Of a DNA stretch of 64,000 bases, positions 1,246-15,371 are shown one piece after another. The stretch comes from an uncultured delta proteobacterium (GTDB lineage Bacteria; Myxococcota_A; Polyangia; Fen-1088): positions 1,920,001-1,984,000 of the forward strand of contig CAVYGB010000002.1 in the NCBI GenBank assembly GCA_963767925.1. Direction: 5' to 3'. The notes beneath the pieces were generated by a model. It did no database searches. It was not told the DNA's origin and saw nothing but the letters and a program-made list of their open reading frames with translations. Made by a program: the position numbers and the translations under genes. How positions within the stretch are numbered: the first letter of the stretch is position 1; every line of letters starts with the position of its first letter.

Positions 1246-1590
1246 TCAGCCCTTGCGGGCCCCCGGGCGGACGCCGGCCAGGGGGGTCAGCTCCGAGAAG
1301 ACCTTCGTCGCCTCCGGCACCTCGGCAATGGGGACGTAATCGCAGACCTCCGCGTAGCGCTCCCACATCTTCAGGACGACCGGGTTGGCGTGGGCGCTCT
1401 CGATGGCCTCGCCCGAGATCCACTCGAACACCTCGACCACCGTGCCGTCCTCGGCCAGCGCGGTGATGGGGGCCCGGTCGGTGACCAGCCCCTGGCCACG
1501 CAAGATGGCGACGTGGTCGAGGATCAGCGCCGCGAGCGCTTCTTTTTTTCCGGGCCGGGGGCGGTAGCAGGCGATGACGATTCGACCCAT
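1246..1590 (-). CDS. Small hypothetical protein, possibly a dimeric alpha/beta barrel (ABM-like)
   Basis: 114 aa with coding-like composition: IVIACYRPRPGK...VEVFEW...AHANPVV..MWERY. Confidence 0.65.
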   Translation of the reverse strand: MGRIVIACYRPRPGKKEALAALILDHVAILRGQGLVTDRAPITALAEDGTVVEVFEWISGEAIESAHANPVVLKMWERYAEVCDYVPIAEVPEATKVFSELTPLAGVRPGARKG

Positions 1591-3842
1591 GCTGGGTCGG
1601 ACGTTACCCCGGTTTTTTCACCCGGGCGACGGAAGATCCAGACGATCGCGCCGAAGGTGGCGAGGGTGGCGGCGGCCATCAGGGTGTATTGCTCGTCGCC
1701 CCAGCGGGACATCCCCTTCAAGGGGGCCCAGGCCACGAACTGGGTGAAGCCGGTCAGCAGCAGCAGCCAGCGGCCCACCTGCTCGCGCTGCTCGGCCAGC
1801 AGGGCGATCCCCAGGATGAAGGCGTAGTAATACGACGTCAGCTCGACCGCCACCGGGACGAAGGTGATGCCGAGGGCGGCGGCCACCCAGAGATCGACGT
1901 GGCGGGCGCACAGGCCGATCATCACGAGCCAGCCCAGGGCGATCAACAGGGCCAGCGGGCGGGCCTCCTTCCACGAGTCGAGCCGGGCCTGCTTCCAGGG
2001 TGACCAGGGGTCGATCAGGCGGCTGTCGTTGGTGAAGCGGCCCACCTCGGCGGGCCGCCAGGAGACGACCGTGCGCAGCCCCAGGTTGTTCACCAGGGGC
2101 GTCTCCTTGTGTTTCGTCGTGTTGGCCGCGAACTCCTGGTAGGCCCTGGTCCCGCCCGACACGGCCAGGCTGACCCCCACGAGCAAGCTGCCCACCAGCG
2201 CGGCCGAGACGAAGAAGCGCACCGCCCCCGACCGGGTGAAGGCCGCGCCGGACGCGCCGTAGTCCCAGCGGGGCGGCGGTGGATCGCTCGCCGGGGCCGG
2301 CGCCGGGCTCGCCGCCGCGGCCTTCGCCCGGCGGCCCTGGTAGAGGTGCCACACCAGCCCGATGGCCGGGCCGGCGAACAGGAACACCGGAAACACGCGC
2401 AGCCCGGTGGCGTAGGCCAGGGCGGCGCCGGCCAGGGCGGGCCGCTGCTTGCGCAGGCAGCAGATGGCGGCGATCGTATAAAACAGCCAGTCCCAGCGCA
2501 GGAACGAGCCCCCGGTCCAGTAGAACCGGGAGGGGAAGTTGGTGGCGAAGGCCAGCAGCGCCACCGCCAGCACCCGCCAGCCGAAGGCCCAGTAGACAAC
2601 CGCGATGGTGGCGGCCAGATACAGCGGGTCGAGCATGGCCAGCGCGTAGAGCTGGGTGTTGCTCGCCGGCGAGAGGTTGGCCAGCGTGGTGCCGAGCGCG
2701 TTCCACAGCGGGGTGGCGTTGTAGCCGTGGTCGAGCTGGATGTCGTCCCAGGTGCGGGCGCCCAGGCGGGCCCGGAAGAAGGAGACGTCCTTCCTGAAGG
2801 CCTGCCAGCGCGGCTCGGAGAAGTGGGCCTTGCAGCGCTCGGGGTTGGCGACGATGCCGGTGCTCGGCTCGAGCACGTTGGTGGTGAGGTTGGTGGTGCG
2901 GCGGCGCTCGACCCGCCGGCGCAGGCCATCTTCGACGTCGGCGACCGACAGGCAGTCGTACAGGCGGGTGTACGACAGCTCGGGGAAATATTTGCTGCCG
3001 ACGTAGTAGTGCACCCACTCGTGGGTGTGGATGAAGTTGCCGAAGTGGAAGAAGCCGAAGTTGATGAAGGTCAGCGCGCCCAGCACGCCGAGGATCTTCA
3101 GCAGGCGGAGGCGCAGGGGGCGGCGAAACTCCGGCCGCCCCTGCCGCTGCAGGGTCAGCCCCCATTGCAGCAGCCCCAGCCCCAGCACCGCCAGCACCAG
3201 CTCCCAGCGGGCGCTGCTCTCGTCGTTCCAGTAGGTCAAGATGGTGCGCGTGGTGGGCGCGGCCTGGGCGGTGCCCACCGTCATCGCCGGCGGGAACGGC
3301 TGCGGCATCTGGCAAAACACCTGGATCTCGGACAGCGAATACGAGCTGTCGCCCTCGCCCTCGCCGAACTTGAGGTAGCGGACCGGCTTGTCGCCCAGCG
3401 AGACGCTGCGCCCGCGCAGCCCGTGCCCGGCGACCGGATCGATGTGCCCCAGCTCGCTGAAGGTCTGCCCGTCGGTCGACCCCCACAGGGTGTAGGTGTC
3501 GTTGGCGTCGGCCTGGATCCAGGCCACCGCGAGCGGATGGGTCGCCCCGAGATCCCAGGTCACGGTGGCCGCGCCAGTATCGAGGATCACCGCCAGCGGC
3601 GCGTCCCAGATCGCCCCCTCGGGCGCCTTGATCCCGTCGGTGGCCTGCTCGAGCCGGCCCCGCATGTCCTGCCAGCTCCAGGCCGACTTGCCGGCCAGCA
3701 GGTTCCCGGCCGGGCAGGCGGACGCCGACGACATCGGGGGTTGCGCCGGAGTTTGCGCGGCGGCGAACCGGACCGGCAAGGCATCGTAGGCGGCGACGGC
3801 GGCCAGCAGCGCGAGGAGGGCCAGGGGGCGAACGGGCTTCAT
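1524..3842 (-). CDS. Membrane protein with N-terminal discoidin/F5-8-like domain and a GT-C/GT87-like multi-TM region
   Basis: Signal peptide; beta-sandwich segment (VTWDLG...IQADANDTY...VRYLKF...LSEIQVF); many hydrophobic helices; HGYNATPLW and WTGGSFLRWDW loops. Confidence 0.65.
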   Translation of the reverse strand: MKPVRPLALLALLAAVAAYDALPVRFAAAQTPAQPPMSSASACPAGNLLAGKSAWSWQDMRGRLEQATDGIKAPEGAIWDAPLAVILDTGAATVTWDLGATHPLAVAWIQADANDTYTLWGSTDGQTFSELGHIDPVAGHGLRGRSVSLGDKPVRYLKFGEGEGDSSYSLSEIQVFCQMPQPFPPAMTVGTAQAAPTTRTILTYWNDESSARWELVLAVLGLGLLQWGLTLQRQGRPEFRRPLRLRLLKILGVLGALTFINFGFFHFGNFIHTHEWVHYYVGSKYFPELSYTRLYDCLSVADVEDGLRRRVERRRTTNLTTNVLEPSTGIVANPERCKAHFSEPRWQAFRKDVSFFRARLGARTWDDIQLDHGYNATPLWNALGTTLANLSPASNTQLYALAMLDPLYLAATIAVVYWAFGWRVLAVALLAFATNFPSRFYWTGGSFLRWDWLFYTIAAICCLRKQRPALAGAALAYATGLRVFPVFLFAGPAIGLVWHLYQGRRAKAAAASPAPAPASDPPPPRWDYGASGAAFTRSGAVRFFVSAALVGSLLVGVSLAVSGGTRAYQEFAANTTKHKETPLVNNLGLRTVVSWRPAEVGRFTNDSRLIDPWSPWKQARLDSWKEARPLALLIALGWLVMIGLCARHVDLWVAAALGITFVPVAVELTSYYYAFILGIALLAEQREQVGRWLLLLTGFTQFVAWAPLKGMSRWGDEQYTLMAAATLATFGAIVWIFRRPGEKTGVTSDPAWVESSSPATAPGPEKKKRSRR

Positions 3843-3934: not shown

Positions 3935-4867
3935 TCAAACCCGCGGCAACATCTGCGGATAAACCAGGTAAACCCGCTCGAACTGCCCCGTCCACAGCCA
4001 GGGCTCCAGCACCTCCACCCCCCCGAACGCCCCCCGCGCCACCGCGTCCTTGCGCAGCACCCGCGACACCAGCACCGGATTGGCCCCCGCATAAACCACC
4101 TGCTGCTGCGGGATCAGCTCCGCAGCCAGCGCCCGCAAGTCCGTCCCGGGCGGCAGCTCGTCGAGCGGGTAGAGCTGCGACGAGACGATATCGCTCGCCA
4201 GCAGCGCCGCCCCCCCGCTCCGGCACAGCCCCGCCAGCGTGCGCAGGTGGACCGCCATGGTGGCCAGCCGCAGCTCCAGGCTGGCCGGCCCGGGATCGCC
4301 GTCGTCTTCCCGGGCGGCGCCCCGCTCGCGCCGTCCCTCGCGCGCGTCGGTCAGCGCCGCCTCGAGGCTCCAGCCGAGCTGGCTCATCAGGCAACAGGAG
4401 ACCGCCACGTCGGCCCGCCCCGCCGGCAGCGCGCCGGTGATCGCCGCCGTCCCCTCGGCCACCGCCTGCTCGAGGGCGGCGGCGTCGGGCGCCTTGCTCC
4501 GCCAGCGGTCGAGCCGGTGGAGCAGCCCCGTCAGATCCACCCCCCCGTGGGCGGCGATCCGCTCGGCCAGCGCCGCCGGCTGGCGCTGCCGGGCGCGCTC
4601 GACCGCGCCGGCGTCGATGTCGACAAGGTGGATCGCGCCGAACCGGCCGGCCAGCGCCGGCAGGTCGACGTCGTTGCAGTTGCCCGCCCCCAGCAGGACC
4701 AGGGTCGAGCCGGCGCCGGCCCCGACCCGCTCGCCCACCGCCAGGATGGTGGCGGTCAGCCGCTCGCGGTGGGCGCGGTACAGCTCCCAGTCGTCGCGCG
4801 AACGCTGGTTGCCGTGGGCGTGCAGGCGGGTGACGCGCGACAGGCTGCTGGCGGTCGGATCGGCCAT
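3935..4867 (-). CDS. Hypothetical protein with class I SAM-methyltransferase-like Rossmann motif
   Basis: LVLLGAGNCNDVDL followed by IHLVDID. Confidence 0.6.
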   Translation of the reverse strand: MADPTASSLSRVTRLHAHGNQRSRDDWELYRAHRERLTATILAVGERVGAGAGSTLVLLGAGNCNDVDLPALAGRFGAIHLVDIDAGAVERARQRQPAALAERIAAHGGVDLTGLLHRLDRWRSKAPDAAALEQAVAEGTAAITGALPAGRADVAVSCCLMSQLGWSLEAALTDAREGRRERGAAREDDGDPGPASLELRLATMAVHLRTLAGLCRSGGAALLASDIVSSQLYPLDELPPGTDLRALAAELIPQQQVVYAGANPVLVSRVLRKDAVARGAFGGVEVLEPWLWTGQFERVYLVYPQMLPRV

Positions 4868-4939: not shown

Positions 4940-7087
4940 TCAGATGGCCTGGGCGGGCGTCTCCTGATCGACCTCGGCGGCCAGCGCCTCGTTGAGGCGG
5001 TAGAGGTGGTTGCCCACCGTCTCGTAGGCGTTGACCAGCTCGGTGCTGTTGAGGCGGCGGGCGATCATCACCGGCTCGCCCTTGTCGGCGTCGACAAGCA
5101 GCCCCTGGCGGCTCTCCGATTCGGTGGCGTTGAGGCGGATCTCCCGGGAGCGCGCGCTGTCGAGGTCGGGCGTCAGGCCGGCCTTCAGGTCACGGGCCAG
5201 CTCGTCGATCCCCTCGACCAGCAACGCGTGCAGCGCCTCGAGCGTCGTGCGGTCGCGGGGCGGCAGCTCGCCGGCCGCGCCGGCCGGCTGCAGGGCCAGG
5301 TTCTGCTCGGTGTTGCGCTCGGCGTGGTGGAGCAGCTCCTCGAGCGCGCGCTGGAGCTGCACCGTGGCCACCGCGGCCTGGCGCAGGCGCCCCATCTCCT
5401 GATGGTCGGTCCGGGTCAGCAGGGCCCCGCCCAGCAGGGGCTCGATCTCGGCCCGGGTCTCGGCCAGGATGTGCTCGCAGTCGCGGCCGCGCCGCCGCTC
5501 GCCCAGCACGGTGAGGTCGCGGATGGCGCCGAGCACCTCGCGGTAGCGGCCCAGCGCCGCCACCAGGCCGGTGCGCAGGGCGCTGACCCCCTCGGTGCCG
5601 TGCAGGGGCGTGACCCGCCGGGTGCGCGAGCGCAGGGCCATCCGCTCGACCGTCTTGACCGCCGAGGGGATGCAGGCCAGCAGCAGCACCGTCACCAGCG
5701 CCTGCCCGAGGGCGAAGCCCGCCACCAGGTGGCGCCCCATGAGGGGCAGCAGGACCTTCTTGCCGTAGGCCACCGCCGCCACCTGCCCCGGCACCAGCGC
5801 GTCGCTGAGATCGGCCAGCAACCCGGCCCCCGCGGCCAGCACCAGCGTCCCGCACAGACCCAGCAGCAGGTGCACCCGGGCCACCCGCCGCGAGGCCGAC
5901 CCGAAGGGGCCAGCGACGATCTGGGTGCCGATGGCCGCGCCGAGCGTGCTGCCCGACAGGATGGCCAGCGCGCTGGTCAGGTCGAGGCGGCCGGTGCTCT
6001 GGGCCAGCCCCAGCACCAGCACGAACACCGGCGCCGGCCCCTGCAGCAGGGCGGTCAGCAGCACGCCCGCCAGCACGCAGGACAGCCGCCCCGACAGCGT
6101 GCCGGCGTGGAAGTGGTCGAGGTAGGGCAGCAGCTCCGGGTTGGAGACCAGGGGCTCGAACCCCTGGCGCAGCAGGTGCAACCCGAAGAACAGCAGCCCG
6201 CAGCCGAGGATGATCTTGCCGAAGGCCTCGCTGCGCCGGTCCGAGGCCAGCGCCAGCCACAGCACCCCGATGCTGACCACCAGCAGCCCCTCGCGGGTGG
6301 AGACCAGCCCCAGCACCGACGGCGTCACCGCCGCCCCGAGCTGGGCGCCCAGCAGCACCGCCACCGCCGGCCCCACCGCGATCAGGTGCGACTCGACCAG
6401 GCCCACCACCAGCCCGGCTGCCGTGGTGGTGAACTGGGTGATGCCGCCGACCGCCACCCCCAGCCCCAGCGCCGCCGGCGTGCGCCGGCCGATCTTGGCC
6501 AGCAGGCCGTTGCCCCGGTCGCCGGTGTACTGGCGACCGCCGCGGGCCATCACCCGCAGCCCGAAGAACAGCAGCGCCAGCCCCCCGATCACCTCCCGGA
6601 ACAGCTTCCGGTAGCTGATGGTCTTGATGCGCATGTCGTAGGGCTTGCTGCGCTCTTCCTTGCTGTAGCCCACGCGCAGCTTGGCCCGACCCTCGAAGGC
6701 CTGCTGGGGGATGCGCACGACCAGCGTGTCCTCCCCCCGGTGCATGACCTGCATCTCGGTGGTGGGGAGCTGCCGGCCCGAGCGGTAATCGGTGACCGAG
6801 AGCGACGCCGCCAGCGGTCGGCTGCGCTGCTTGTAGGTGTCGATGAAGGCGACCTCGACCGCGCTGCCCGGGGTGGGCTCGCCGCGGACCTCGACCACCT
6901 CGATCAGCTCCTTGTTCCGGTCTTCCTCCGGGAGCTGGGTGGCGGTGGCGCCTGCGCCCTCTTCGGCCGGACCGGTCCCGTTGGAGGGCTCTCCCTCGTC
7001 GAGCAGCGTGTAACCGAGCAGCAGAGCGGCGGATACCGACCAGGCCGCGGCGGTCCGCCAGCGCCGGTGTTTAGTCTGCGACTCCAT
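4940..7087 (-). CDS. Na+/phosphate cotransporter (NptA family) with N-terminal extracytoplasmic extension and PhoU-like helical C-terminus
   Basis: IGGLALLFFGL, ITQFTT...LLGAQLGAAVT and second repeat LLQGP...ILSGSTLGAAI; helical cytoplasmic tail. Confidence 0.8.
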   Translation of the reverse strand: MESQTKHRRWRTAAAWSVSAALLLGYTLLDEGEPSNGTGPAEEGAGATATQLPEEDRNKELIEVVEVRGEPTPGSAVEVAFIDTYKQRSRPLAASLSVTDYRSGRQLPTTEMQVMHRGEDTLVVRIPQQAFEGRAKLRVGYSKEERSKPYDMRIKTISYRKLFREVIGGLALLFFGLRVMARGGRQYTGDRGNGLLAKIGRRTPAALGLGVAVGGITQFTTTAAGLVVGLVESHLIAVGPAVAVLLGAQLGAAVTPSVLGLVSTREGLLVVSIGVLWLALASDRRSEAFGKIILGCGLLFFGLHLLRQGFEPLVSNPELLPYLDHFHAGTLSGRLSCVLAGVLLTALLQGPAPVFVLVLGLAQSTGRLDLTSALAILSGSTLGAAIGTQIVAGPFGSASRRVARVHLLLGLCGTLVLAAGAGLLADLSDALVPGQVAAVAYGKKVLLPLMGRHLVAGFALGQALVTVLLLACIPSAVKTVERMALRSRTRRVTPLHGTEGVSALRTGLVAALGRYREVLGAIRDLTVLGERRRGRDCEHILAETRAEIEPLLGGALLTRTDHQEMGRLRQAAVATVQLQRALEELLHHAERNTEQNLALQPAGAAGELPPRDRTTLEALHALLVEGIDELARDLKAGLTPDLDSARSREIRLNATESESRQGLLVDADKGEPVMIARRLNSTELVNAYETVGNHLYRLNEALAAEVDQETPAQAI

Positions 7088-7958
7088 GGACAGCTTGGGC
7101 GGCCTCCTCGAACTTGCTGACCCGGCTCGGCTCCGCGCCGACCGTCCCGAGTAGGTCTATCAGCCAACCCGGGGGCGCGGTGCGACACTTTAGCTCGATT
7201 ATAGCTCGTTCGAACCTACGTTTGGCGGGTCCGAGCCCGTCGCGCACGAGCCCCTGATCGCGGCGCCACAGATCGGCCGGTGGAGCGAAGAACTCCACCG
7301 CCACGTCGAGGGTGACCCGCAGCCCACCCTCGGGGTCCTGCCAGGGGAGCCGCCGGTAGTGCACGAGGCAGTCCGCACGCAACGGCTCCGTATACCCGGC
7401 GCAGTAGGTGAGGATCTCCCGCAGGCTCCCCTCGCCCCAGAAGCTGGCCGGGGCGGGGGTCTGGGCGTCGATCTCGAAGTCGTGGGAGACGACCGGAGGG
7501 TGGGCGGCGCTGGTTTCCCCCAGCGAGGAGAGGACCTCGGGGACGTACTGTCGGGGGATGGCAAGCCGGTGCTTGCCGGTGCGGTTGCCGTCGCGGAACT
7601 TGAGCTCCAGCCAGATGCCCGGTGAGTGGTGGAAGACCTCGCGCGGGTCGGTGGCCAGCTCGGCCAGCGAGGGGTGCAGGTCGTAATAGGCCCGGGCGCG
7701 CAGCTTGGCGTGGTGGGCGCCGGGCTCGCCGGAGCGCAGGGCCCGGTAGACCTGGCGCGAGCGGGTGTCGAAGTACACCGTGGTCACGAAGTGCCGCGGA
7801 CGCGGCAAGGTGTTGGCGTCGGCCCCGATGAAGCGGTGGTGGCGCAGGTGCCGGTTGAGCGCCTGGGTGAACGCCTGCGCCCGGCCGGGCGCCAGGAGAT
7901 AACGGTGCTCCTGCCGCTCGGCGGACAGATCCGCCGCGGCCATTGCCAGTTGCGACAT
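7071..7958 (-). CDS. VTC domain (CYTH-like polyphosphate polymerase family) protein
   Basis: RQEHRY, TVYFDT, KLRARAY, WLELK, RVTLD, IIELK, SKF motifs. Confidence 0.85.
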   Translation of the reverse strand: MSQLAMAAADLSAERQEHRYLLAPGRAQAFTQALNRHLRHHRFIGADANTLPRPRHFVTTVYFDTRSRQVYRALRSGEPGAHHAKLRARAYYDLHPSLAELATDPREVFHHSPGIWLELKFRDGNRTGKHRLAIPRQYVPEVLSSLGETSAAHPPVVSHDFEIDAQTPAPASFWGEGSLREILTYCAGYTEPLRADCLVHYRRLPWQDPEGGLRVTLDVAVEFFAPPADLWRRDQGLVRDGLGPAKRRFERAIIELKCRTAPPGWLIDLLGTVGAEPSRVSKFEEAAQAVHGVAD

Positions 7959-8035
7959 GAAACGCGCCTTACCATTTAATGTGGCGGTTCAAGGGCGCGG
8001 CGGCAACCGCGGCCGGATGTGGGTACGGCCGGGCG

Positions 8036-9742
8036 TCAGTCCGACGGGCCGTCGGGATTGACGTGGCAGCCGAGCGCGATGGCCGAGACGTGCTTGAGCA
8101 GCGAGATGTTGTCCCCGTGGCGCCCGAGCTGGCGCTGAACCAGGGCCTGACCGCGCGCCGTGTCGGCCAGGGGACCGAGGCTCTTGACCACCGTCGAGGG
8201 CCAGACGTCTGCGAACTGGTCGCGCAGGCGCCAGGCCCGATCCCCGTCGAGCTCGTTCATGGAGTCGATGGCCTCTTTCACCATCGGGGCCAGGTTCTCG
8301 CGCAGGTCCCAGGCCCGGGGATCGTCGATCCGGGCCAGCGTCTCGAACACCGGCTTGGGGGCCCGGGTGACGTAGCGCTTGCGCCACTTGAAGGACCGGT
8401 CCGACAGGACGTATTTGAGCGAGGAGATGGCCACCGTGGGGGCGTGGTCGCGCATCACCTTGCGCAGGTCCCAGGCCCGCTCGTCGTCGAGGCCGATCAG
8501 CGATTTGCCGAGCACGCGCGCGTTCTCGAACAGGGCCAGCGCGGCGTCGCCGCCCCGGCTCTTGAGCCAGCGCTCCCGGATCTCCCAGGCCCGCTCGCTG
8601 GCCAGGCCGGCCAGCGAGGCGGCCACCACGTCGAGGTGCTCGGCCTGCAGGCGGTCGCGCAGGGCCCAGGCCTCCGCGTCGTCGATGCCGTCGAGGGCCA
8701 GCAACACGTCGAGGGGCGCCCGTTCGGCGAGGCGGCCGCGCAGCTCGGCGCTGCGGGGGTGGGGCTGGGCCAGGCCGCTCAGGCTGCGGGCCACCCGGCC
8801 GGGGAGCTGGTCCATCAGCTCGGTCCGGATCTGCCAGGACAGCGGATCGGTCAGGCCGCTGCAGCCGGCCAGCAAGGTCTCGGGCGCGGTCGGAAGCAGC
8901 GCCCGACGGCGATCGTCGACGCCGGGGCCGTGCAGGCCGCTCAGCAGATAGGCGGTCGTGTGGGGCTCGCGGGTCAGCCGGTCGTCGATCAGCTCGAGGA
9001 AGCGCCCGAGCGCCGCCGGCGGATCGGCCACCGGCGCGGCCGCCCGGGTGGGCGTCGCCTTGGCCTCCTCTGCCCGGGCCATCTCGAGCGCGGCGGGCAC
9101 GCCCTTCTGGGCGGCCAGCAGCAGGGCGCGGGACACCCGATCGACGGCGGCGTGCAGATCGCCGCCGTTGTCCACCACCAGCCAGCGCTCGGGATCGGCG
9201 GCGGCCATGGTCCGGTAGCCGTTGCGAAAGCGGTGCTGCATGCCCACCCCGCCCAGCCCCTTGCGCGAGGGCGGGCGGCGGTCGAGCGTGATCAGCTTGG
9301 CCACCCGCCGGCGGGCGCGGGCCAGGTGGGGGTCGACGTCGACGAGCACCACCAGGTCGGGGCGCAGCCCCCGGGCGGCGGCGTCCAGCACCGGCCGCAG
9401 CCAGGCCTCGGACAGCCCCCGCCCGTGCCGGGCCAGCACCTCGGCGCTGAACAGGAAGCGGTCGGCGATGACCACGTCGGCCCGGCCGAGGGCCGGGCGG
9501 GTCATCTCCTCGAGGAGCTGCACGTCGCGGGTGACGTAGAGGAAGAACTCGGCGAAGGGGGTGAGGTCGAGGTTGCGGGCGTCGCGCCCGAACTCGCGCA
9601 GGTTCTGGGTGACCGCCGAGGAGAACTTGCCCCCCTCGCGCAGGTGCTCCACCGTGAGGCCAGAGGCGCGCAGGCGCTCGGCCGCCAGGTTGGAGATGGT
9701 GGTCTTGCCGCTCCCGTCGATGCCTTCGAAGACGACGAACAT
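8036..9742 (-). CDS. tmk: Thymidylate kinase-like P-loop kinase fused to about 10 helical repeats of about 27 aa
   Basis: FEGIDGSGKTT P-loop, VIADRF and PDLVVLVDVDP motifs; C-terminal repeats of type SL.GL.D.RAW.LR; start overlaps the porin stop (TGATG). Confidence 0.8.
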   Translation of the reverse strand: MFVVFEGIDGSGKTTISNLAAERLRASGLTVEHLREGGKFSSAVTQNLREFGRDARNLDLTPFAEFFLYVTRDVQLLEEMTRPALGRADVVIADRFLFSAEVLARHGRGLSEAWLRPVLDAAARGLRPDLVVLVDVDPHLARARRRVAKLITLDRRPPSRKGLGGVGMQHRFRNGYRTMAAADPERWLVVDNGGDLHAAVDRVSRALLLAAQKGVPAALEMARAEEAKATPTRAAAPVADPPAALGRFLELIDDRLTREPHTTAYLLSGLHGPGVDDRRRALLPTAPETLLAGCSGLTDPLSWQIRTELMDQLPGRVARSLSGLAQPHPRSAELRGRLAERAPLDVLLALDGIDDAEAWALRDRLQAEHLDVVAASLAGLASERAWEIRERWLKSRGGDAALALFENARVLGKSLIGLDDERAWDLRKVMRDHAPTVAISSLKYVLSDRSFKWRKRYVTRAPKPVFETLARIDDPRAWDLRENLAPMVKEAIDSMNELDGDRAWRLRDQFADVWPSTVVKSLGPLADTARGQALVQRQLGRHGDNISLLKHVSAIALGCHVNPDGPSD

Positions 9743-10920
9743 CAGAACGCCGCTCCCAGTTGCAGCACGACCGCCCGGTGCGAGGCCAGGAAGCGCTGCT
9801 CGAAGTCGAAGAACATGCCGCGGGGGAAGTTGCGCCCCGCCTTGTCGTATTCGAGCTGGAGGGTGAGGCGCGTGTCGCGCCAGTGTCCCAGGTTGGCCCC
9901 CGCCATCACCTCGAGGAACAGATCGTCCTGCACGGCGGTGTCGGGCTCGAGCGCCCCCGCGGTGGCGAACAGCTCGAAGTAGGGCGCCCCCCGCTTCAGC
10001 CCGCCCCAGCGCCAGGCGCCCAGCAGGCGGCCCTCGACGAAGGTGGCGTCGCCGGTGGCGGTCGGATCGGCCTTGAACCAGCTCGTGCCGGTCAGCGCCT
10101 CGGCCCAGAAGCGCAGGCCGGTGCGCTCGAATTCGATGTCGCCGGTGGCGTCGACGCCGCCCGCCCAGTAGCCCTCGAGGCCGGTGGCCTGCTGGGTGAC
10201 CCGGTATTGCCCGACGGCGGCCAGCTCCACCCCGCCCGGGGTGGTGGCCAGCCGGGCGACGACGGTCTGGTCAGCCAGGGAGGCCCCCTCGACCGGGTCG
10301 CCCGAGTCGGCGCCCCACTGCACCGAGCGGAAGGCGCCGACCGTGAGCTCGGGGTCCCAGAAGCCGCCCCCCTCGATGCGACCGATGAAGCCCTCGCGCC
10401 GGCCGGTCAGCAACATGTGGTCGGACAGCAGCTCGTGCAGCCAGCCGCGGCGGGCGACCGGCAGGGTCCAGGGCGACTCCAGGTGGAACGAGGAGATGGG
10501 CATCTTGAATTGCCCGCCCCGCAGCAGCCAGCGCTTCTTGCGAGCCTGCACGTAGCCGTCGCGCAGGCGGACGTTGCCCGCGATCTCCGCCTCCAGCACC
10601 ACCGAGACCAGGTCGAGCATGTCGACCCGCAGCGAGGCGCGCGCGCTCGGCACCGACAGCGACAGGGCCTCGGCCTCGGTCTGGACGTTGCCGACGTCCT
10701 CGAGCCGCTGGTCGTCGTAGGCGGCGGCGGCGAACACGCGCCCCCGCACCTCGAAGGTGAAGCGCTCGGGCTCGGCGGCCGCCGGTGGGCCGGCCTGAGC
10801 TGCCGCCTCGCTCGACGGCGCGTCCGCCTCGGGCTGCGCGCGGGCCGGATCGGGAACGACGAGGACGGCGATCGCGGCGCAGGCGGACCATAGAAACGTT
10901 CGCAGCGGGGGCTTGGACAT
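9742..10920 (-). CDS. Outer-membrane porin, OprO/OprP (phosphate-selective)-like
   Basis: Signal peptide, LRDGYV and RGGQFKMPIS motifs, alternating beta-strands, C-terminal Phe; start placed at MSKPP. Confidence 0.7.
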   Translation of the reverse strand: MSKPPLRTFLWSACAAIAVLVVPDPARAQPEADAPSSEAAAQAGPPAAAEPERFTFEVRGRVFAAAAYDDQRLEDVGNVQTEAEALSLSVPSARASLRVDMLDLVSVVLEAEIAGNVRLRDGYVQARKKRWLLRGGQFKMPISSFHLESPWTLPVARRGWLHELLSDHMLLTGRREGFIGRIEGGGFWDPELTVGAFRSVQWGADSGDPVEGASLADQTVVARLATTPGGVELAAVGQYRVTQQATGLEGYWAGGVDATGDIEFERTGLRFWAEALTGTSWFKADPTATGDATFVEGRLLGAWRWGGLKRGAPYFELFATAGALEPDTAVQDDLFLEVMAGANLGHWRDTRLTLQLEYDKAGRNFPRGMFFDFEQRFLASHRAVVLQLGAAF

Positions 10921-11101
10921 TGCTTTTTGGAGCGTCCCCCGCGGTCTCCACTGGCTCACACCGCGACCTCGCTGGCGACCGGACGGTCAGGACGCGCGGG
11001 ATGCTACACGCCACCGCCAGGGCGGGCAATGGGTTGCCCGTCGCGCACGCGAGCTGTCGGTTCGCGTCAGCGGGGAAACCGGGGCATGCTGCCGCAGACG
11101 G

Positions 11102-12988
11102 ATGACGACGCTCGAGCGCCTGGCGGTCGCGCTGCCCCTGCTGCTGGCGGCGGCGTGCACCCTCGCGATCGCCCGCCGGCGGATCGTGCTGCTGCTCGGC
11201 CGTCAGGGGCCGCACCTGGCGCCGGCCGTCTGCATCGTCGTGTGGCTGATCGGGTTGACCCTGGGGCAGGCGGCCGGCTCGCTGGTGGCGATGTCGCTCG
11301 CCGGGAGCTTGCCCCTGCTCGGCCTGGGCCTGCTCGCCCTGCGCACGCCGCCGCTGCGGCGGCCCGGGCCCCGGCTCGGCCCGGCCCTGCTGCTCGCGCT
11401 GGCCGGCGTCGCCCTCTACCAGATCGTCGTCCCCGGGTTCGACAGCCTCTGCCACTTCGCCATCGCCGGCAATTACCTGCGCGGCAACATCCCGCCCACC
11501 GCCCTCGACAACCCGGACAGCCCGCTGCTCTACCACCCGCTGTTCGACGCCGCCGCCGCGGTTGTCACCCGCGCCCTCGGCACCGACCTCGAGCTGGGGC
11601 TCGATCTGGTGTCGCTGCTGGCGGTGCTGGCCTGCTTGCTGGCGGCCACCGCCCTGGCCCGGGCGCTGTCTCCCGGAAGCCGCCTGGTCCCCCTGCTCGG
11701 GGTGCTCGCCCTCCTGCTCGGCGGCGGGCCCACCTTTCTCCGGGTGCTCGGCAGCAGCGCGCCGGTCGAGGAGGCGCTGCACGGCCAGACCAGCCAGGCC
11801 TTCCTCGATCAGATGTTGCGCCGGCCGTTCCCCCTCTGCTTCGCGGTCGTCGCTCTGGTGCTGGCGCTGCTGCTGCGCCCGCCCCGCGAGGCGGCGCGCC
11901 GGCCCTGGCTCACCGGCCTGCTGCTGGCGCCGCCGTTCTTTCTCCTGCCCCAGGTGGGCGAGGAGCAGGTGCTCGTGCTCGGGCTGCTGGTGGCGGGTCT
12001 GCTGTTCTTGCGGCGCCTGCCGCTGCTCGCGGCGGCGATGGCGGGGGCGGCGGCGCTGGCCGGCGGGCTGGCCTCGGGGGTGTTCCGGGCCCTGCTCGCG
12101 CCGGCGCCCACCTCGATGGCCAGCCCGCGGCTGGCGCTGCAGTGGCCGCCGGCGCTGCCGACCTGGACCGAGCCGCTGGGGGGCTGGCCGATCCCGAGCT
12201 GGCCGGCGGCGGCGGTCGCCCTGTTCGAGCTGGGACCGTTCTTCTTCCTCACCGCGATCGCGCTCGGCGCGTGGGTGTTGTCGCGGCGGCTGCCAGCCGG
12301 GCCCGGGCCGCCCCGCGCGCCCGCAGCGATCCTGCTGGCGGTCGTGGCGGCCAACCTCCTCGGCGCCACCTGCTTGACCTTGCAGGGCTGGCCGCGCGCC
12401 GACCTCGACCGCTTCGTCTTCCAGGCCAGCAACCTGATGCTGCTCGCGACCCCCGCGGCGCTGCTGCCGCTCGCCCGCTGGCGACCGGAGCGGCCGGGAC
12501 TGCGGCGGCTGGGCTTCGTGCTCGCCGGCCTGTTTCTGATCGGGGGCAGCGTCGGGCTGGCCACCCACCGGGTGGCGACCCGCATCGCCGACTACCGCCC
12601 GCTGGGCCCGGAGCGCCCCTACGGGCAGCTCCGCCGGCTACTCGGCACGGCGGTGGGACCGCGCGATCTGATCGCGACGGATCCCGCTTCGGCCCAGATG
12701 CTGGTGACCGCCGGCTTCCTGGTTGTGGCGCCGATGGACAGCCACATGGTCGGGGTGGTCAACGGCGCGCGCTTCCATTCGTACCTGGAGGCGAACCGCT
12801 GTCGCGCCCGCTGGCGCTGGCTGCCGGAGCTGGATCCGGCCGTGCGCGCGAGCGAAGCGGTCGTCCTGCTGGGAGGCTACGCCTTGCTGCCGGGCTCAGG
12901 GTGCCCCGAGGGGCGCCCGCGCTCAGCGGCCAGCGGTCGCGATGTCGAGCGCGGTCAAGGCCAGGGTCGGGTTGTGTCCCAGCCGTGA
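11102..12988 (+). CDS. Polytopic membrane protein, possibly GT-C-like glycosyltransferase
   Basis: Many TM segments, FDSLCH and LLYHPLFD loop motifs; start MTTLERL chosen. Confidence 0.55.
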   Translation: MTTLERLAVALPLLLAAACTLAIARRRIVLLLGRQGPHLAPAVCIVVWLIGLTLGQAAGSLVAMSLAGSLPLLGLGLLALRTPPLRRPGPRLGPALLLALAGVALYQIVVPGFDSLCHFAIAGNYLRGNIPPTALDNPDSPLLYHPLFDAAAAVVTRALGTDLELGLDLVSLLAVLACLLAATALARALSPGSRLVPLLGVLALLLGGGPTFLRVLGSSAPVEEALHGQTSQAFLDQMLRRPFPLCFAVVALVLALLLRPPREAARRPWLTGLLLAPPFFLLPQVGEEQVLVLGLLVAGLLFLRRLPLLAAAMAGAAALAGGLASGVFRALLAPAPTSMASPRLALQWPPALPTWTEPLGGWPIPSWPAAAVALFELGPFFFLTAIALGAWVLSRRLPAGPGPPRAPAAILLAVVAANLLGATCLTLQGWPRADLDRFVFQASNLMLLATPAALLPLARWRPERPGLRRLGFVLAGLFLIGGSVGLATHRVATRIADYRPLGPERPYGQLRRLLGTAVGPRDLIATDPASAQMLVTAGFLVVAPMDSHMVGVVNGARFHSYLEANRCRARWRWLPELDPAVRASEAVVLLGGYALLPGSGCPEGRPRSAASGRDVERGQGQGRVVSQP

Positions 12989-13462
12989 CAGCTCCTGCTT
13001 GAGCAGCTCCGACTCGAGCGTCTTGCGGCCGAGCAGGCGCTCGAGCTCGCGCACGCGATCGCGCAGGTCGCGCACCTCCGTGCGGGAGTCGTCCTCGCTC
13101 TTGCTGCGAGCCGGGCCCGCGCTGCTGTCGAGCTGGCGCCGCCAGCGGAACAGCAGGCTCACCGACAGGCCATAGCGACGTCCCACCGACGACATGCTCT
13201 CACCCGAGGAAATCGCCTGCTGCAAAAATTGCCGCTTCTCCTCGTTGCTGAATCGGCGACGGCGTCCGGGCAGCGGACCGGGCAGTCCGTTCGCGTTCGT
13301 CTCGTCTTCCTGAGGAGGGGTCTCGGGCAGAGGAGCGGAGGGAGGGGGAAGATCCAGTTCGACCAGGTCTCGGACCGCGCTCATGATCTTCGTCTCTGCT
13401 TTCTGGCCTGCTTGTAGGAACTGGCCGGTGGATGTACCTTCATCGGGTCGTCCGGTTGCCAT
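12923..13462 (-). CDS. IS3/IS2-family OrfA-like HTH protein (HTH_Tnp_1) with no OrfB next to it
   Basis: RRRRFSNEEK...VGRRYGLSVSLLFRWRRQ HTH plus zipper RVRELERLLGRKTLESELLK. Confidence 0.75.
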   Translation of the reverse strand: MATGRPDEGTSTGQFLQAGQKAETKIMSAVRDLVELDLPPPSAPLPETPPQEDETNANGLPGPLPGRRRRFSNEEKRQFLQQAISSGESMSSVGRRYGLSVSLLFRWRRQLDSSAGPARSKSEDDSRTEVRDLRDRVRELERLLGRKTLESELLKQELSRLGHNPTLALTALDIATAGR

Positions 13463-13514
13463 AGGGACGACCCAAACAACTGGGTCCGTTTTTACACCTC
13501 TTTTACCGGCGTGT

Positions 13515-14162
13515 GTGAGCTTTCCGCAGAAATCGGTACCGCGCCGCGCTCAGGTCACCCCGATCGTGCTGGCCGCCGGCGCTTCGACGCGGATGGGCAA
13601 ACGGAAGGAATACCTGTCGTTTGGCCAGCTTACCTGCCTGGATCTGGTACTGGATGCGTCTCGTCGAGCGGGCCTGGGAGAGCCGATTCTGGTGACCCGG
13701 ATCGAGCGCCAGGAGGAGCTGAAAAGGGTGCTTTCGGCCCGCGGTGTCCCGGCCCGGATCGCGGTCAACGATAGGCCCGAGCTGGGGCAGACCTCTTCGC
13801 TGCGCGCGGGTCTGCAGGTGCTCTCCGATCAGGCGCAGGCCTTCCTGATCCACCCCGTCGACTATCCGCTCATCCGCGCGAACGATATCGAGCGGCTGTG
13901 CGAGGTCTTCGTGGAAGCGTTTCCCGCGGCGACGGTGGTGGCGCCGTCGTTCGCGCGCCGGCGCGGGCACCCGGTGATCGTCGCCGCCTCGGTCGCGCCG
14001 GCGATCCTCGCGCTGCCCGAAGGCGCCTCGGCCCGCGAGGCGCTCGCGCCCCACGCCGCCGCCACCCGCTACGTGGACTTCGAAAACGATCGCGTGCTCC
14101 AGGACATGGATACCCCTGACGACTACGCGCGCTGCCTCGCCCGCTGGACCTTCGGCGACTGA
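13515..14162 (+). CDS. mocA: Molybdenum cofactor cytidylyltransferase-like nucleotidyltransferase (MocA family)
   Basis: IVLAAGASTRMG, GQTSSL, VDYP, RRGHPV, DMDTPDDY; directly upstream of xdhC; start uncertain. Confidence 0.8.
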   Translation: MSFPQKSVPRRAQVTPIVLAAGASTRMGKRKEYLSFGQLTCLDLVLDASRRAGLGEPILVTRIERQEELKRVLSARGVPARIAVNDRPELGQTSSLRAGLQVLSDQAQAFLIHPVDYPLIRANDIERLCEVFVEAFPAATVVAPSFARRRGHPVIVAASVAPAILALPEGASAREALAPHAAATRYVDFENDRVLQDMDTPDDYARCLARWTFGD

Positions 14163-14332
14163 CCCCTCACCCCGCCCCTCTCCCCGCTACCGCGGGGCGA
14201 GGGCGACCAATCTCCTCGCCGCGACCGCCCTTCGCGAGCGCGATCGCCCTCGGCCTCTCGAAGAATCGTCGCGGCAGGTGGCGTGTTTGCCCTCTCCCCG
14301 CTACCGCGGGGCGAGGGAAAGGGTGAGGGGTC
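14161..14332. repeat. Pair of REP-like palindromic elements in inverted arrangement
   Basis: GACCCCTCACCCC..CCCTCTCCCCGCTACCGCGGGGCGAGGG and CCCTCTCCCCGCTACCGCGGGGCGAGGG..GGGTGAGGGGTC; same family as 58821-59412. Confidence 0.75.
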
Positions 14333-14483
14333 TGGCGTCGCCCCTCGCTGCGTGACCCATCGCCGGCGCGGGCGCTCAGGTTCGCGGGATTTTTACAGTG
14401 AGCAGGATGCGGGAGGGCAAGTGTGGTTGTCCCTACGCCAACTTGTTGTTACAGGCAGGATCACTGGATATGCTCGCCCGCCC

Positions 14484-15371
14484 ATGGAGGTTTCCCGCAA
14501 GGTGCTCCGTCGAGCGGCCGAGCTGGCGGATGCTGGCCAGCCTTTCGCGCTCTGTACGGTTACAGCCACCCGCGGGAGCGTGCCGGGCAAGGTCGGCGCG
14601 AAGATGATCGTCGACCGCCACGGCGTGCAGTTCGGCACCGTGGGTGGCGCGGGCCTCGAGGAGAAGACCAAGGCTCTGGCGGTCAAGTGCATCGCCGAGA
14701 AGAAGTCCGCCACCCAGAAGTTCGACCTGGCGTACTTCCGGCCTGGCGCGCTGGACAGCCTTTGCGGAGGCACCGTCGAGGTGCTGGTGGAGTACATGGG
14801 CGCAGTACCACACGTCCTCATCTGCGGCGGCGGCCACGTCGGCCTCGAGGTGGCCCGCCTGTGTGACCAGCTCGAATACGTCTATTCGGTGCTCGACGAC
14901 CGGGCCGAGTTCGCCGGGCGCGAGCGCTTCCCCCGGGCGAGCGGCCTTCACGTGGGCCGCCCGGAGGTGTTTTTCCCGGAGGCCGATCTCGGCGGGTACT
15001 CCCACCTCATCATCCTGGGGTACTCGCACCGGATCGACACCGACATCCTCTACGACTGTTGCAAACGCTTCCGCGGCTACATCGGGGTCATCTCGAGCAA
15101 GCTCAAGAAGCGCGAGATGTTCGCGCGCATGCGCGAACGCGGCGTGACCGAGGAAGAGCTGGCGCAAGTGGAGGCGCCACTGGGAATCGGGATCGGCGCA
15201 GAGACCCCGGCCGAGATTGCAGTATCGATAATGGGCGGAATCATCGCCCATCACAAAGGCATCAGCGCTACGGCGAACGAGCGTCCCTCACCCCTGGAGG
15301 CTAGCGATGGCGAAGAAGCGGAACCCCGCCAACGAGAAAAAGACGACCGGCAGATCAAGTCTGTCGGCTAG
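14484..15371 (+). CDS. xdhC: XdhC family Moco-insertion chaperone
   Basis: TRGSVPGKVGAKM, GTVGG, CGG, ICGGGHVG, DDR, APLGIGIGAETPAEIAVSI. Confidence 0.9.
   Translation: MEVSRKVLRRAAELADAGQPFALCTVTATRGSVPGKVGAKMIVDRHGVQFGTVGGAGLEEKTKALAVKCIAEKKSATQKFDLAYFRPGALDSLCGGTVEVLVEYMGAVPHVLICGGGHVGLEVARLCDQLEYVYSVLDDRAEFAGRERFPRASGLHVGRPEVFFPEADLGGYSHLIILGYSHRIDTDILYDCCKRFRGYIGVISSKLKKREMFARMRERGVTEEELAQVEAPLGIGIGAETPAEIAVSIMGGIIAHHKGISATANERPSPLEASDGEEAEPRQREKDDRQIKSVG

Follow-up and report, generated by a model that had tools for sequence, protein, structure and literature searches.

Organization of the locus

The window analyzed here is a 64,000-nucleotide stretch of the genome of an uncultured delta proteobacterium of the Polyangia (contig CAVYGB010000002.1, positions 1,920,001 to 1,984,000; G000:C2:1920001-1984000 in our numbering), and the subject of this report is an operon within it that encodes a porin-like outer-membrane barrel, a thymidylate kinase (Tmk)-like protein with an α-solenoid (hereafter Tmk-solenoid), a vacuolar transporter chaperone (VTC) domain protein, and a sodium/inorganic phosphate (Na/Pi) cotransporter-family protein (Table 1). 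The genome comprises 9.3 Mb in 13 contigs and is 83.8% complete with 5% contamination; its guanine-plus-cytosine (GC) content is ~73%. The four genes are co-oriented, together span positions 4940-10959, and have coding-type GC contents at the third codon position (GC3) of 0.88 to 0.97, as judged from the open reading frame (ORF) listing and the GC content by codon position. The porin stop codon and the Tmk-solenoid start codon have one base in common (TGATG), the VTC and transporter genes overlap by 17 nt, and a gap of 77 nt separates the Tmk-solenoid and VTC genes. In a promoter/terminator scan of the operon, sigma-70-like sites were absent, and the terminator-like hairpins numbered only three, all weak and all within coding sequence. 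Since the ORFs are supported by GC3, two of the junctions overlap (by 1 and 17 nt), and no convincing internal terminator is present, the four genes form one operon. An initial annotation, made from the nucleotide sequence alone, had described four co-oriented genes with porin/kinase and VTC/transporter overlaps, with which the ORF listing and GC3 agree. In addition, its assignments of the porin to the OprO/P type, of the VTC protein to the VTC4 type, and of the transporter to the NptA type are supported, indirectly in the case of the porin, by the profile matches given below for each protein.

Table 1. Positions of the operon genes, the flanking genes, and related genes in the same genome and in the most divergent related locus (aa, amino acids; AF2, AlphaFold2)
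Feature	Location	Strand	Evidence or remark
Outer-membrane barrel (porin)	Window, 9742-10959 with GTG start	-	ORF and GC3; no Pfam match of its own
Tmk-solenoid protein, 568 aa	Window, 8036-9742	-	PF02223; AF2 model
VTC protein, 295 aa	Window, 7071-7958	-	PF09359
Na/Pi cotransporter-family protein, 715 aa	Window, 4940-7087	-	PF02690, two stretches; NF037997
Polytopic membrane protein, divergent	Window, 10913-12988	+	No Pfam/NCBIfam match
Gene next to the transporter gene	Window, 3935-4867		
Polytopic membrane protein	Window, 1524-3842	-	No Pfam/NCBIfam match
MobA-like nucleoside triphosphate transferase	Window, 13383-14162	+	
XdhC/CoxI-family protein	Window, 14283-15371	+	
TonB-type barrel	L087:2648-5503	+	CarboxypepD_reg and OMP_b-brl_4
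Porin paralogue	L087:5763-6965	+	
DUF3108-like lipoprotein	L087:7028-7957	+	
VTC paralogue	L087:8012-8920	+	
Orphan DUF4956-like membrane protein, 333 aa	G000:C10:212126-213127 (L088:6126-7127)	-	
PPK1	C8:3190294-3190839		
Canonical Porin_O_P match	C8:3197161-3197574		
Two arginase-family genes of the most divergent module (porin-VTC-Tmk-DUF4956)	L072:3037-4640	+	
Bax1-I family membrane protein	L072:9368-10120	+	After DUF4956

The Tmk-solenoid protein

In the AF2 model of the Tmk-solenoid protein, built from 68 homologues (pLDDT 95, pTM 0.92), residues 1-213 form a P-loop kinase of the thymidylate kinase fold, which is followed by two linker helices and, at residues ~241-556, by about ten two-helix repeats of ~27 aa each with an 'AW.LR' motif, giving an α-solenoid of ~330 aa. 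The protein thus contains one Tmk domain and a solenoid, with no repetition of Tmk, and the label 'Tmk-repeat' that it had been given is inaccurate. The kinase domain matches PF02223 over residues 5-192 (E 8.6e-20, 71.6 bits against a cut-off of 27), the match to TIGR00041 is borderline (84 bits against a cut-off of 83.25), and a PDB sequence search returned Tmk for this domain (E 6.7e-21). When the model was compared with 48,161 PDB representatives, the closest fold was that of Thermus thermophilus Tmk 5x7j (VIA Z 22.8, root mean square deviation 1.6 Å over 180 residues, 35% identity), whereas PPK2 chains reached only Z 11.5-12.3 in the same comparison; Foldseek likewise gives Tmk for the kinase head. 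PF03976 (PPK2) was absent among the Pfam matches of the protein at E≤0.01. The analogy with PPK2 drawn in the initial annotation is therefore weak.

In the 68 Tmk-solenoid sequences, the P-loop MFVVFEGIDGxGKT (M1-T14), E65, Y69, R72, D94-R95, R144, and R160-K161 are invariant. Because the P-loop, the DRF motif, and the lid residues are all included, the kinase is under selection as an enzyme. An ungapped alignment with Thermus Tmk places 'YVTRD' at the position of 'FSADR', with the conserved Arg one residue earlier, and 'VLAR' at the position of 'AFQG' after the DRY motif. In canonical Tmk, where the Arg lies four residues after the stacking aromatic, these segments bind the phosphate and the base of dTMP.

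The last 354 residues have no match in Pfam/NCBIfam even at E≤10, and the solenoid profile gave no PDB sequence match and no usable match in the ESM Atlas. By structure, the solenoid resembles the repeats of proteasome Rpn2/PSMD2 (Z 14.1 and 12.8), which is barely above the chance level for helical repeats. Each repeat of ~27 residues has one invariant Arg, and the net charge of the domain is about zero. The repeat profile retrieved 545 representative proteins at E≤0.001, mostly the same fusion of ~565 aa. The 'AW.LR' repeat also forms stand-alone proteins of ~340-385 aa, and it occurs several times each in P0156, P0172, P0177, P0227, P0229, P0241, P0252, and P0260, which have a transglutaminase-like core. 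A role of the solenoid Arg stripe as a polyphosphate (polyP) binder was considered and downgraded in view of the near-zero net charge and the presence of the same repeat in these transglutaminase-like giants.

The genome contains three PF02223 matches, namely, the window gene, a canonical 209-aa tmk on contig C6, and a deoxynucleoside kinase. The C6 gene scores 131.8 bits against PF02223, and its product shares 34% identity with the window Tmk domain over 141 aa. A separate short tmk is therefore present, as the idea that the window gene is something other than the housekeeping tmk had implied. The solenoid domain was detected in 4 genomes among 401 sampled from the phylum and in 15 of the 41 nearest relatives; within the same family, 11 of 24 genomes have it. 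Owing to its restriction to 4/401 and 15/41 genomes, the protein is non-essential. The Tmk-solenoid protein is an accessory, specialized paralogue and not the housekeeping dTMP kinase. In public sources the family is labeled 'dTMP kinase' (255 proteins at E≤0.001), and a metagenome or metagenome-assembled genome (MAG) is the source of all 120 listed among these 255 matches.

The VTC protein

The VTC protein matches PF09359 over essentially the entire model (positions 2-235 of 235; E 1.4e-20, 74.3 bits against a cut-off of 23). Searching the PDB with the single sequence returned no match, and a profile of 54 VTC sequences matched the whole catalytic domain of yeast Vtc4 (3g3q) at E 2.2e-18. The non-catalytic subunits Vtc2 and Vtc3 were matched far more weakly by this profile (1.3e-7 and ~1e-4). 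At E≤1, only VTC subunits were returned from the PDB, with no hydrolase chain.

Catalytic residues of Vtc4 were mapped by counting along the printed alignment, the native Vtc4 number being the 5iiq index minus 3. R264, E426, K428, and K458 correspond to R87, E255, K257, and K282 of the window protein, and all four are invariant in the 54 sequences. S457 corresponds to S281 (S in 52 of 54), R266 corresponds to R89 (K in 31 and R in 23), and K200 corresponds to R19 (K in 36 and R in 18). Roles of K200 and K458 in Vtc4 were reportedly described by Hothorn et al. in 2009, who are also said to have tied the S-K-F motif (S457/K458) to polymerase activity. The mutations R264A/R266A/E426N of Vtc4 impair catalysis (PMC9911596). 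The window protein is predicted to be Vtc4-like, with every mappable catalytic position kept. It stands alone, having PF09359 only and neither an SPX nor a transmembrane (TM) domain, and SPX (PF03105) and the VTC1-type domain PF02656 were not among the Pfam matches of any operon protein.

The outer-membrane barrel and the Na/Pi transporter

The likely start of the barrel protein is an ATG at 10920 (MSKPPL...), which would be followed by a signal peptide, and the C terminus reads ...GAAF. The protein itself has no match in Pfam/NCBIfam even at E≤10, and PDB sequence searches with the barrel sequence and with its family profile found no match to OprP or OprO. Among 40 aligned members of its family, however, 14 match Porin_O_P (PF07396) at E≤0.01, the best at 3.8e-9, and hhalign aligns the family profile with the canonical Porin_O_P of the same genome at 96.7% probability (E 3.6e-10) over 154 columns, which include a loop-3 (L3)-like 'GQFKxP...LP..RG' segment. 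The AF2 model (pLDDT 85.6) has 16 strands and short helices in an L3-like loop after strand 5. Foldseek matches the model to PorB (E 2.8e-13), OprP 2o4v (E 7.5e-11, query TM-score [TMq] 0.59), and OprO (TMq 0.58). Thirteen positions are at least 75% Lys/Arg, and 12 of these 13 lie in strands and therefore should face the barrel lumen; several conserved acidic positions are present as well. On these profile and model comparisons, the barrel is best regarded as a probable divergent member of the Porin_O_P lineage.

The transporter matches PF02690 in two stretches (E 2.6e-28, 99.2 bits against a cut-off of 29.1) and NF037997 (71.2 bits against a cut-off of 50), while its TIGR00704 score of 89.2 is below the cut-off of 210.1. 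Its profile matches SLC34A2 structures (9z60, E 4.2e-6), and Q-[ST]-T motifs are present in both halves. The protein is predicted to be an SLC34/NptA-family inner-membrane protein. In addition to this core, it has an N-terminal hydrophobic anchor, a domain of ~130 aa, and a C-terminal helical region of ~230 aa. The N- and C-terminal regions returned nothing useful from Pfam at E≤10, with no PhoU in the C-terminal region. Conserved basic residues of the ~130-aa domain (within residues 1-165) are R117, R125, R138, R146, K148, and K161; if this domain is periplasmic, the added helix would flip the usual orientation of the carrier core.

The module in other Polyangia

A search for related loci yielded 80 loci, and 72 of them (L004-L075), from Polyangia MAGs, carry the Tmk-solenoid fusion; the other 8 have short Tmk genes of other phyla or are fragments. 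The loci were screened by tblastn with the window proteins and with proteins derived from the loci themselves, which Pfam assigned to a second VTC type (E 7.4e-21), DUF4956 (E 4.5e-11), a DUF3108-like family (E 3.5e-7), and Porin_O_P (E 3.1e-6). The module comprises up to six families, which are the Porin_O_P-like barrel, the Tmk-solenoid, DUF4956, a DUF3108-like lipoprotein, VTC, and the SLC34-like Na/Pi transporter.

At least one partner family is present in 68/72 loci and in every locus flanked by 4.5 kb or more on each side (44/44), and for this reason the adjacency of the module genes is not due to chance. The individual partners, given as their number in the 72 loci and in the 44 well-flanked loci, are DUF3108-like (59 and 41), VTC (54 and 36), the porin (46 and 30), the Na/Pi transporter (33 and 22), and DUF4956 (31 and 20). 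The transporter and DUF4956 occur together in only 4/72 loci (1/44), and neither is present in 12/72 (3/44). With P for the porin, T for the Tmk-solenoid, 3 for DUF3108-like, 4 for DUF4956, V for VTC, N for the Na/Pi transporter, and a prime for the opposite strand, the gene orders of the 44 loci are PT3VN (12 loci), VT43 (10 loci), PT43 (3 loci), and P3VNT, TN'V'3'3'P', and TP3 (2 loci each), the rest being singletons. The window order PTVN recurs in L048, and TVN is found in L020. The linkage of these genes that the initial annotation had proposed is thus seen across 72 loci and in at least five gene orders. The same annotation had stated that DUF4956 is not seen at the window, and this is correct for the window; in the relatives, DUF4956 is nevertheless a regular module member (31/72 loci), and an orphan copy is present in the genome.

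The gene orders fall into clades of the Tmk-solenoid tree (FastTree, midpoint-rooted), the deepest of which has PVT4(3). DUF4956 is scattered within the clade bearing the Na/Pi transporter (L012, L042, L051, L056, L057, and L069). This pattern fits a gain of the transporter followed by repeated loss of DUF4956, a reading that depends on the root and on the approximate tree. In the most divergent module, L072, two arginase-family genes lie upstream of the porin, and a Bax1-I family membrane protein is encoded beyond DUF4956.

The DUF3108-like partners have lipoboxes and DUF4956 has four hydrophobic segments (4-TM), and therefore module parts are placed in the cytoplasm, in the periplasm, and in both membranes. 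Among the 41 relatives, the solenoid is found in 15 and VTC in 29, all 15 being within the 29; VTC is present in a further 14 relatives, out of 26 that lack the solenoid. We conclude with high confidence that the module is real and centered on VTC. The window carries a reduced copy of it, porin-Tmk-VTC-Na/Pi transporter.

Related genes elsewhere in the genome

Contig C13 carries a second, partial module (G000:C13:209000-226000, locus L087), whose four genes are all on the plus strand and include neither a Tmk-solenoid nor a Na/Pi transporter (Table 1). The porin and VTC paralogues of this locus are 49% and 54% identical, respectively, to the window proteins. The orphan DUF4956-like protein on contig C10 scores 28 bits in Pfam, below the cut-off of 30.6, and its tblastn match to the L072 DUF4956 has an E value of 8e-44. 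The gene adjoins those of a Ser/Thr kinase-tetratricopeptide repeat (TPR) protein and a TsaB-like protein. In addition, the CotH kinase family (PF08757) is unusually expanded in this genome, with 28 matches, none of which is in the window or beside either VTC gene. Two canonical Porin_O_P matches are also present, neither of which is in the window. One of the two PPK1 genes lies ~7 kb from a canonical Porin_O_P match on contig C8, and this pair may be a conventional phosphate/polyP neighborhood.

Predicted function

The reading that we favor, with a probability of about 0.5, is that Pi is taken up via the porin and the Na/Pi protein, that VTC acts as a polyP sink, and that the kinase recycles or gates nucleotides. 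Phosphate anions would pass the outer membrane via the arginine-lined porin and the inner membrane via the Na/Pi transporter. Cytoplasmic VTC would build polyP from nucleoside triphosphate (NTP), and this sink would drive uptake, as is supposed for yeast VTC. The Tmk-solenoid would be a nucleotide-handling or regulatory partner; as a reversible nucleoside monophosphate (NMP) kinase, it could recycle the nucleoside diphosphate (NDP) released by VTC (2 NDP <-> NTP + NMP) or control how much NTP is available locally, and the solenoid would dock the kinase to other subunits.

Several points weigh against this uptake-and-storage scheme. VTC uses NTP and not imported Pi, so that uptake and polymerization would be coupled only indirectly, and the genome already has two PPK1 genes and one PPK2 gene (the latter on C1), none of them in the window. 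The polymerase activity of a bacterial VTC protein is extrapolated from yeast, and the window protein has Arg at the position equivalent to K200. The window barrel itself misses the Pfam Porin_O_P model. With neither DUF4956 nor the lipoprotein, the window copy could be a module in decay. The substrate of the Tmk-solenoid, judged by its NMP-site motifs, may differ from dTMP. As for the solenoid, the repeat is also found in proteins of 950-2,400 aa, and of 16 outliers that were scanned, 8 have a transglutaminase core and 1 has a Tmk domain. Because of its occurrence in large transglutaminase-like proteins, the 27-aa repeat is probably a generic scaffold and not a polyP binder, and the invariant Arg of each repeat may be structural.

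A broader scheme, which we consider unlikely, makes VTC the center of an envelope-spanning machine for vectorial phosphate/polyP traffic. In such a machine, the Tmk-solenoid would take an SPX-like sensing or nucleotide-gating role, the inner-membrane partner (DUF4956 or the SLC34-like protein) would be interchangeable, and the lipoprotein and the O/P-type porin would complete the path, which might include polyP export to the periplasm or cell surface. Export as the main function, with polyP made by VTC at the inner membrane being passed out, whole or as short oligomers, via DUF4956 or the Na/Pi protein, the DUF3108-like lipoprotein, and the O/P-type porin to give periplasmic or surface polyP, would parallel in a Gram-negative cell the coupling of synthesis to translocation in the eukaryotic complex. 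It would account for module parts in every envelope layer and for the second VTC copy of the genome, which likewise has a TonB-type barrel, a lipoprotein, and a porin paralogue beside it. By TM-score, the nearest structural matches of the window barrel include OprO and OprP, and eukaryotic VTC couples synthesis to translocation (PMC9911596). However, an SLC34-type carrier would not be expected to pass a polymer chain, although about half of the loci have it in place of DUF4956; the L3-like constriction of the 16-strand porin is suited to small anions; and no VTC1-type channel domain (PF02656) was among the Pfam matches of any scanned protein. Export is doubtful as the main function.

The module might instead scavenge condensed phosphates. 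Pyrophosphate, tripolyphosphate, or polyP would cross the envelope via the OprO-like porin and the partner in the inner membrane, the tunnel enzyme would act as a tri-/polyphosphatase or in reverse (polyP + NDP -> NTP), and the Tmk-like kinase would pass the phosphoryl group to NMPs, so that the two proteins together would do the work of a class III PPK2. This scheme is close to the idea of a polyP-linked kinase in the initial annotation. NMP kinases are reversible, which the scheme exploits, and the NMP-site motifs of the Tmk-solenoid deviate from those of canonical Tmk. As is common for nutrient-scavenging loci, the module is accessory and patchy (11/24 genomes within the same family), and many triphosphate-tunnel enzymes are hydrolases (PMC4641920). 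On the other side, the VTC profile matches catalytic Vtc4 (E 2.2e-18) more closely than it does any PDB hydrolase chain, and the kinase is Tmk-like and not PPK2-like. The S-K-F motif, which is reportedly linked to polymerase activity, is also conserved, and scavenging is rather improbable on balance.

An ordinary housekeeping dTMP kinase that lies beside phosphate genes by coincidence, its tail being a lineage-specific decoration, would suit the public name, the TIGR00041 score passed by 0.75 bits, and the intact catalytic motifs, but it is scarcely credible given the canonical 209-aa tmk elsewhere (34% identity over 141 aa), the solenoid in only 4/401 phylum genomes and 15/41 relatives, and the linkage to the VTC module in 68/72 loci.

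Relation to known systems

The eukaryotic VTC complex (yeast Vtc4; 3g3q, 7ytj, and 8i6v) is among the known systems closest to the one predicted here. The catalytic triphosphate tunnel metalloenzyme (TTM) domain aligns over its full length, the catalytic positions are conserved, and in both cases the enzyme is associated with membrane proteins. Unlike the eukaryotic complex, the window protein and its operon have neither an SPX sensor nor a VTC1-type TM channel domain. In place of these, the module is predicted to supply the Tmk-solenoid, either DUF4956 or an SLC34-like carrier, a lipoprotein, and an outer-membrane porin. Bacterial clusters of VTC and DUF4956 with or without CotH are known from annotation only. 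CotH is reported to lie usually beside bacterial VTC. VTC, DUF4956, and CotH co-occur in the control genomes of Bacteroides thetaiotaomicron, Corynebacterium glutamicum, and Methanosarcina acetivorans. The relatives of the window resemble these clusters in the pairing of VTC with DUF4956 and differ from them in having the P-loop Tmk-solenoid in place of the kinase partner and in the addition of outer-membrane and periplasmic parts.

The individual proteins likewise combine familiar and divergent features. The Tmk-solenoid shares with Tmk of Thermus thermophilus (5x7j) the fold, the P-loop EGxDGxGKTT, the DRF motif, and the arginine-rich lid, whereas it has a 330-aa solenoid, shifted or replaced NMP-site motifs, linkage to VTC, and the patchy distribution of a paralogue. 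The barrel is like OprP/OprO (PF07396; 2o4v and 4rjw) in its 16 strands, its L3-like loop, the profile homology of its family, and its many conserved Arg/Lys predicted to face the lumen, although the general porins PorB and Omp32 match it equally well by Foldseek E value. The transporter has the two Na_Pi_cotrans repeats with Q-S/T-T motifs of NptA/YjbB-type proteins and SLC34, and unlike them it has the extra N-terminal anchor and the domain of ~130 aa and is translationally coupled to VTC.

In PMC open-access papers and bioRxiv, no functional study of a bacterial VTC, DUF4956, or CotH protein was found, nor was any bacterial system that joins VTC, an anion porin, a phosphate transporter, and a Tmk-like kinase. 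In bacteria, polyP synthesis is attributed to PPK1 and PPK2. VTC-type polymerases are presented as the route of eukaryotes in a 2025 review (PMC12526157). VTC-type polyP synthesis is itself known, and what is new here is the Tmk-solenoid subunit and the bacterial envelope context. If the VTC enzyme is active, it would represent a third bacterial route of polyP synthesis, would give a functional context to the uncharacterized DUF4956 and DUF3108-like families, and would offer a tractable bacterial system for the coupling of VTC to membrane transport and nucleotide supply. In addition, the database label 'dTMP kinase' on about 250 proteins of the Tmk-solenoid family is corrected.

Flanking genes

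The three genes nearest to the operon, which are the divergent gene and the two genes beyond the transporter gene (Table 1), were matched by tblastn in none of the 80 loci, and they are placed outside the module because they have no counterpart in any related locus. Two of them encode large polytopic membrane proteins that flank the operon, and the one on the minus strand has a signal peptide and a soluble N-terminal domain of ~180 aa. Beyond the divergent gene, the MobA-like transferase gene is followed by the XdhC/CoxI-family gene, a pair that has no relation to the VTC operon and resembles genes of molybdenum-cofactor maturation.

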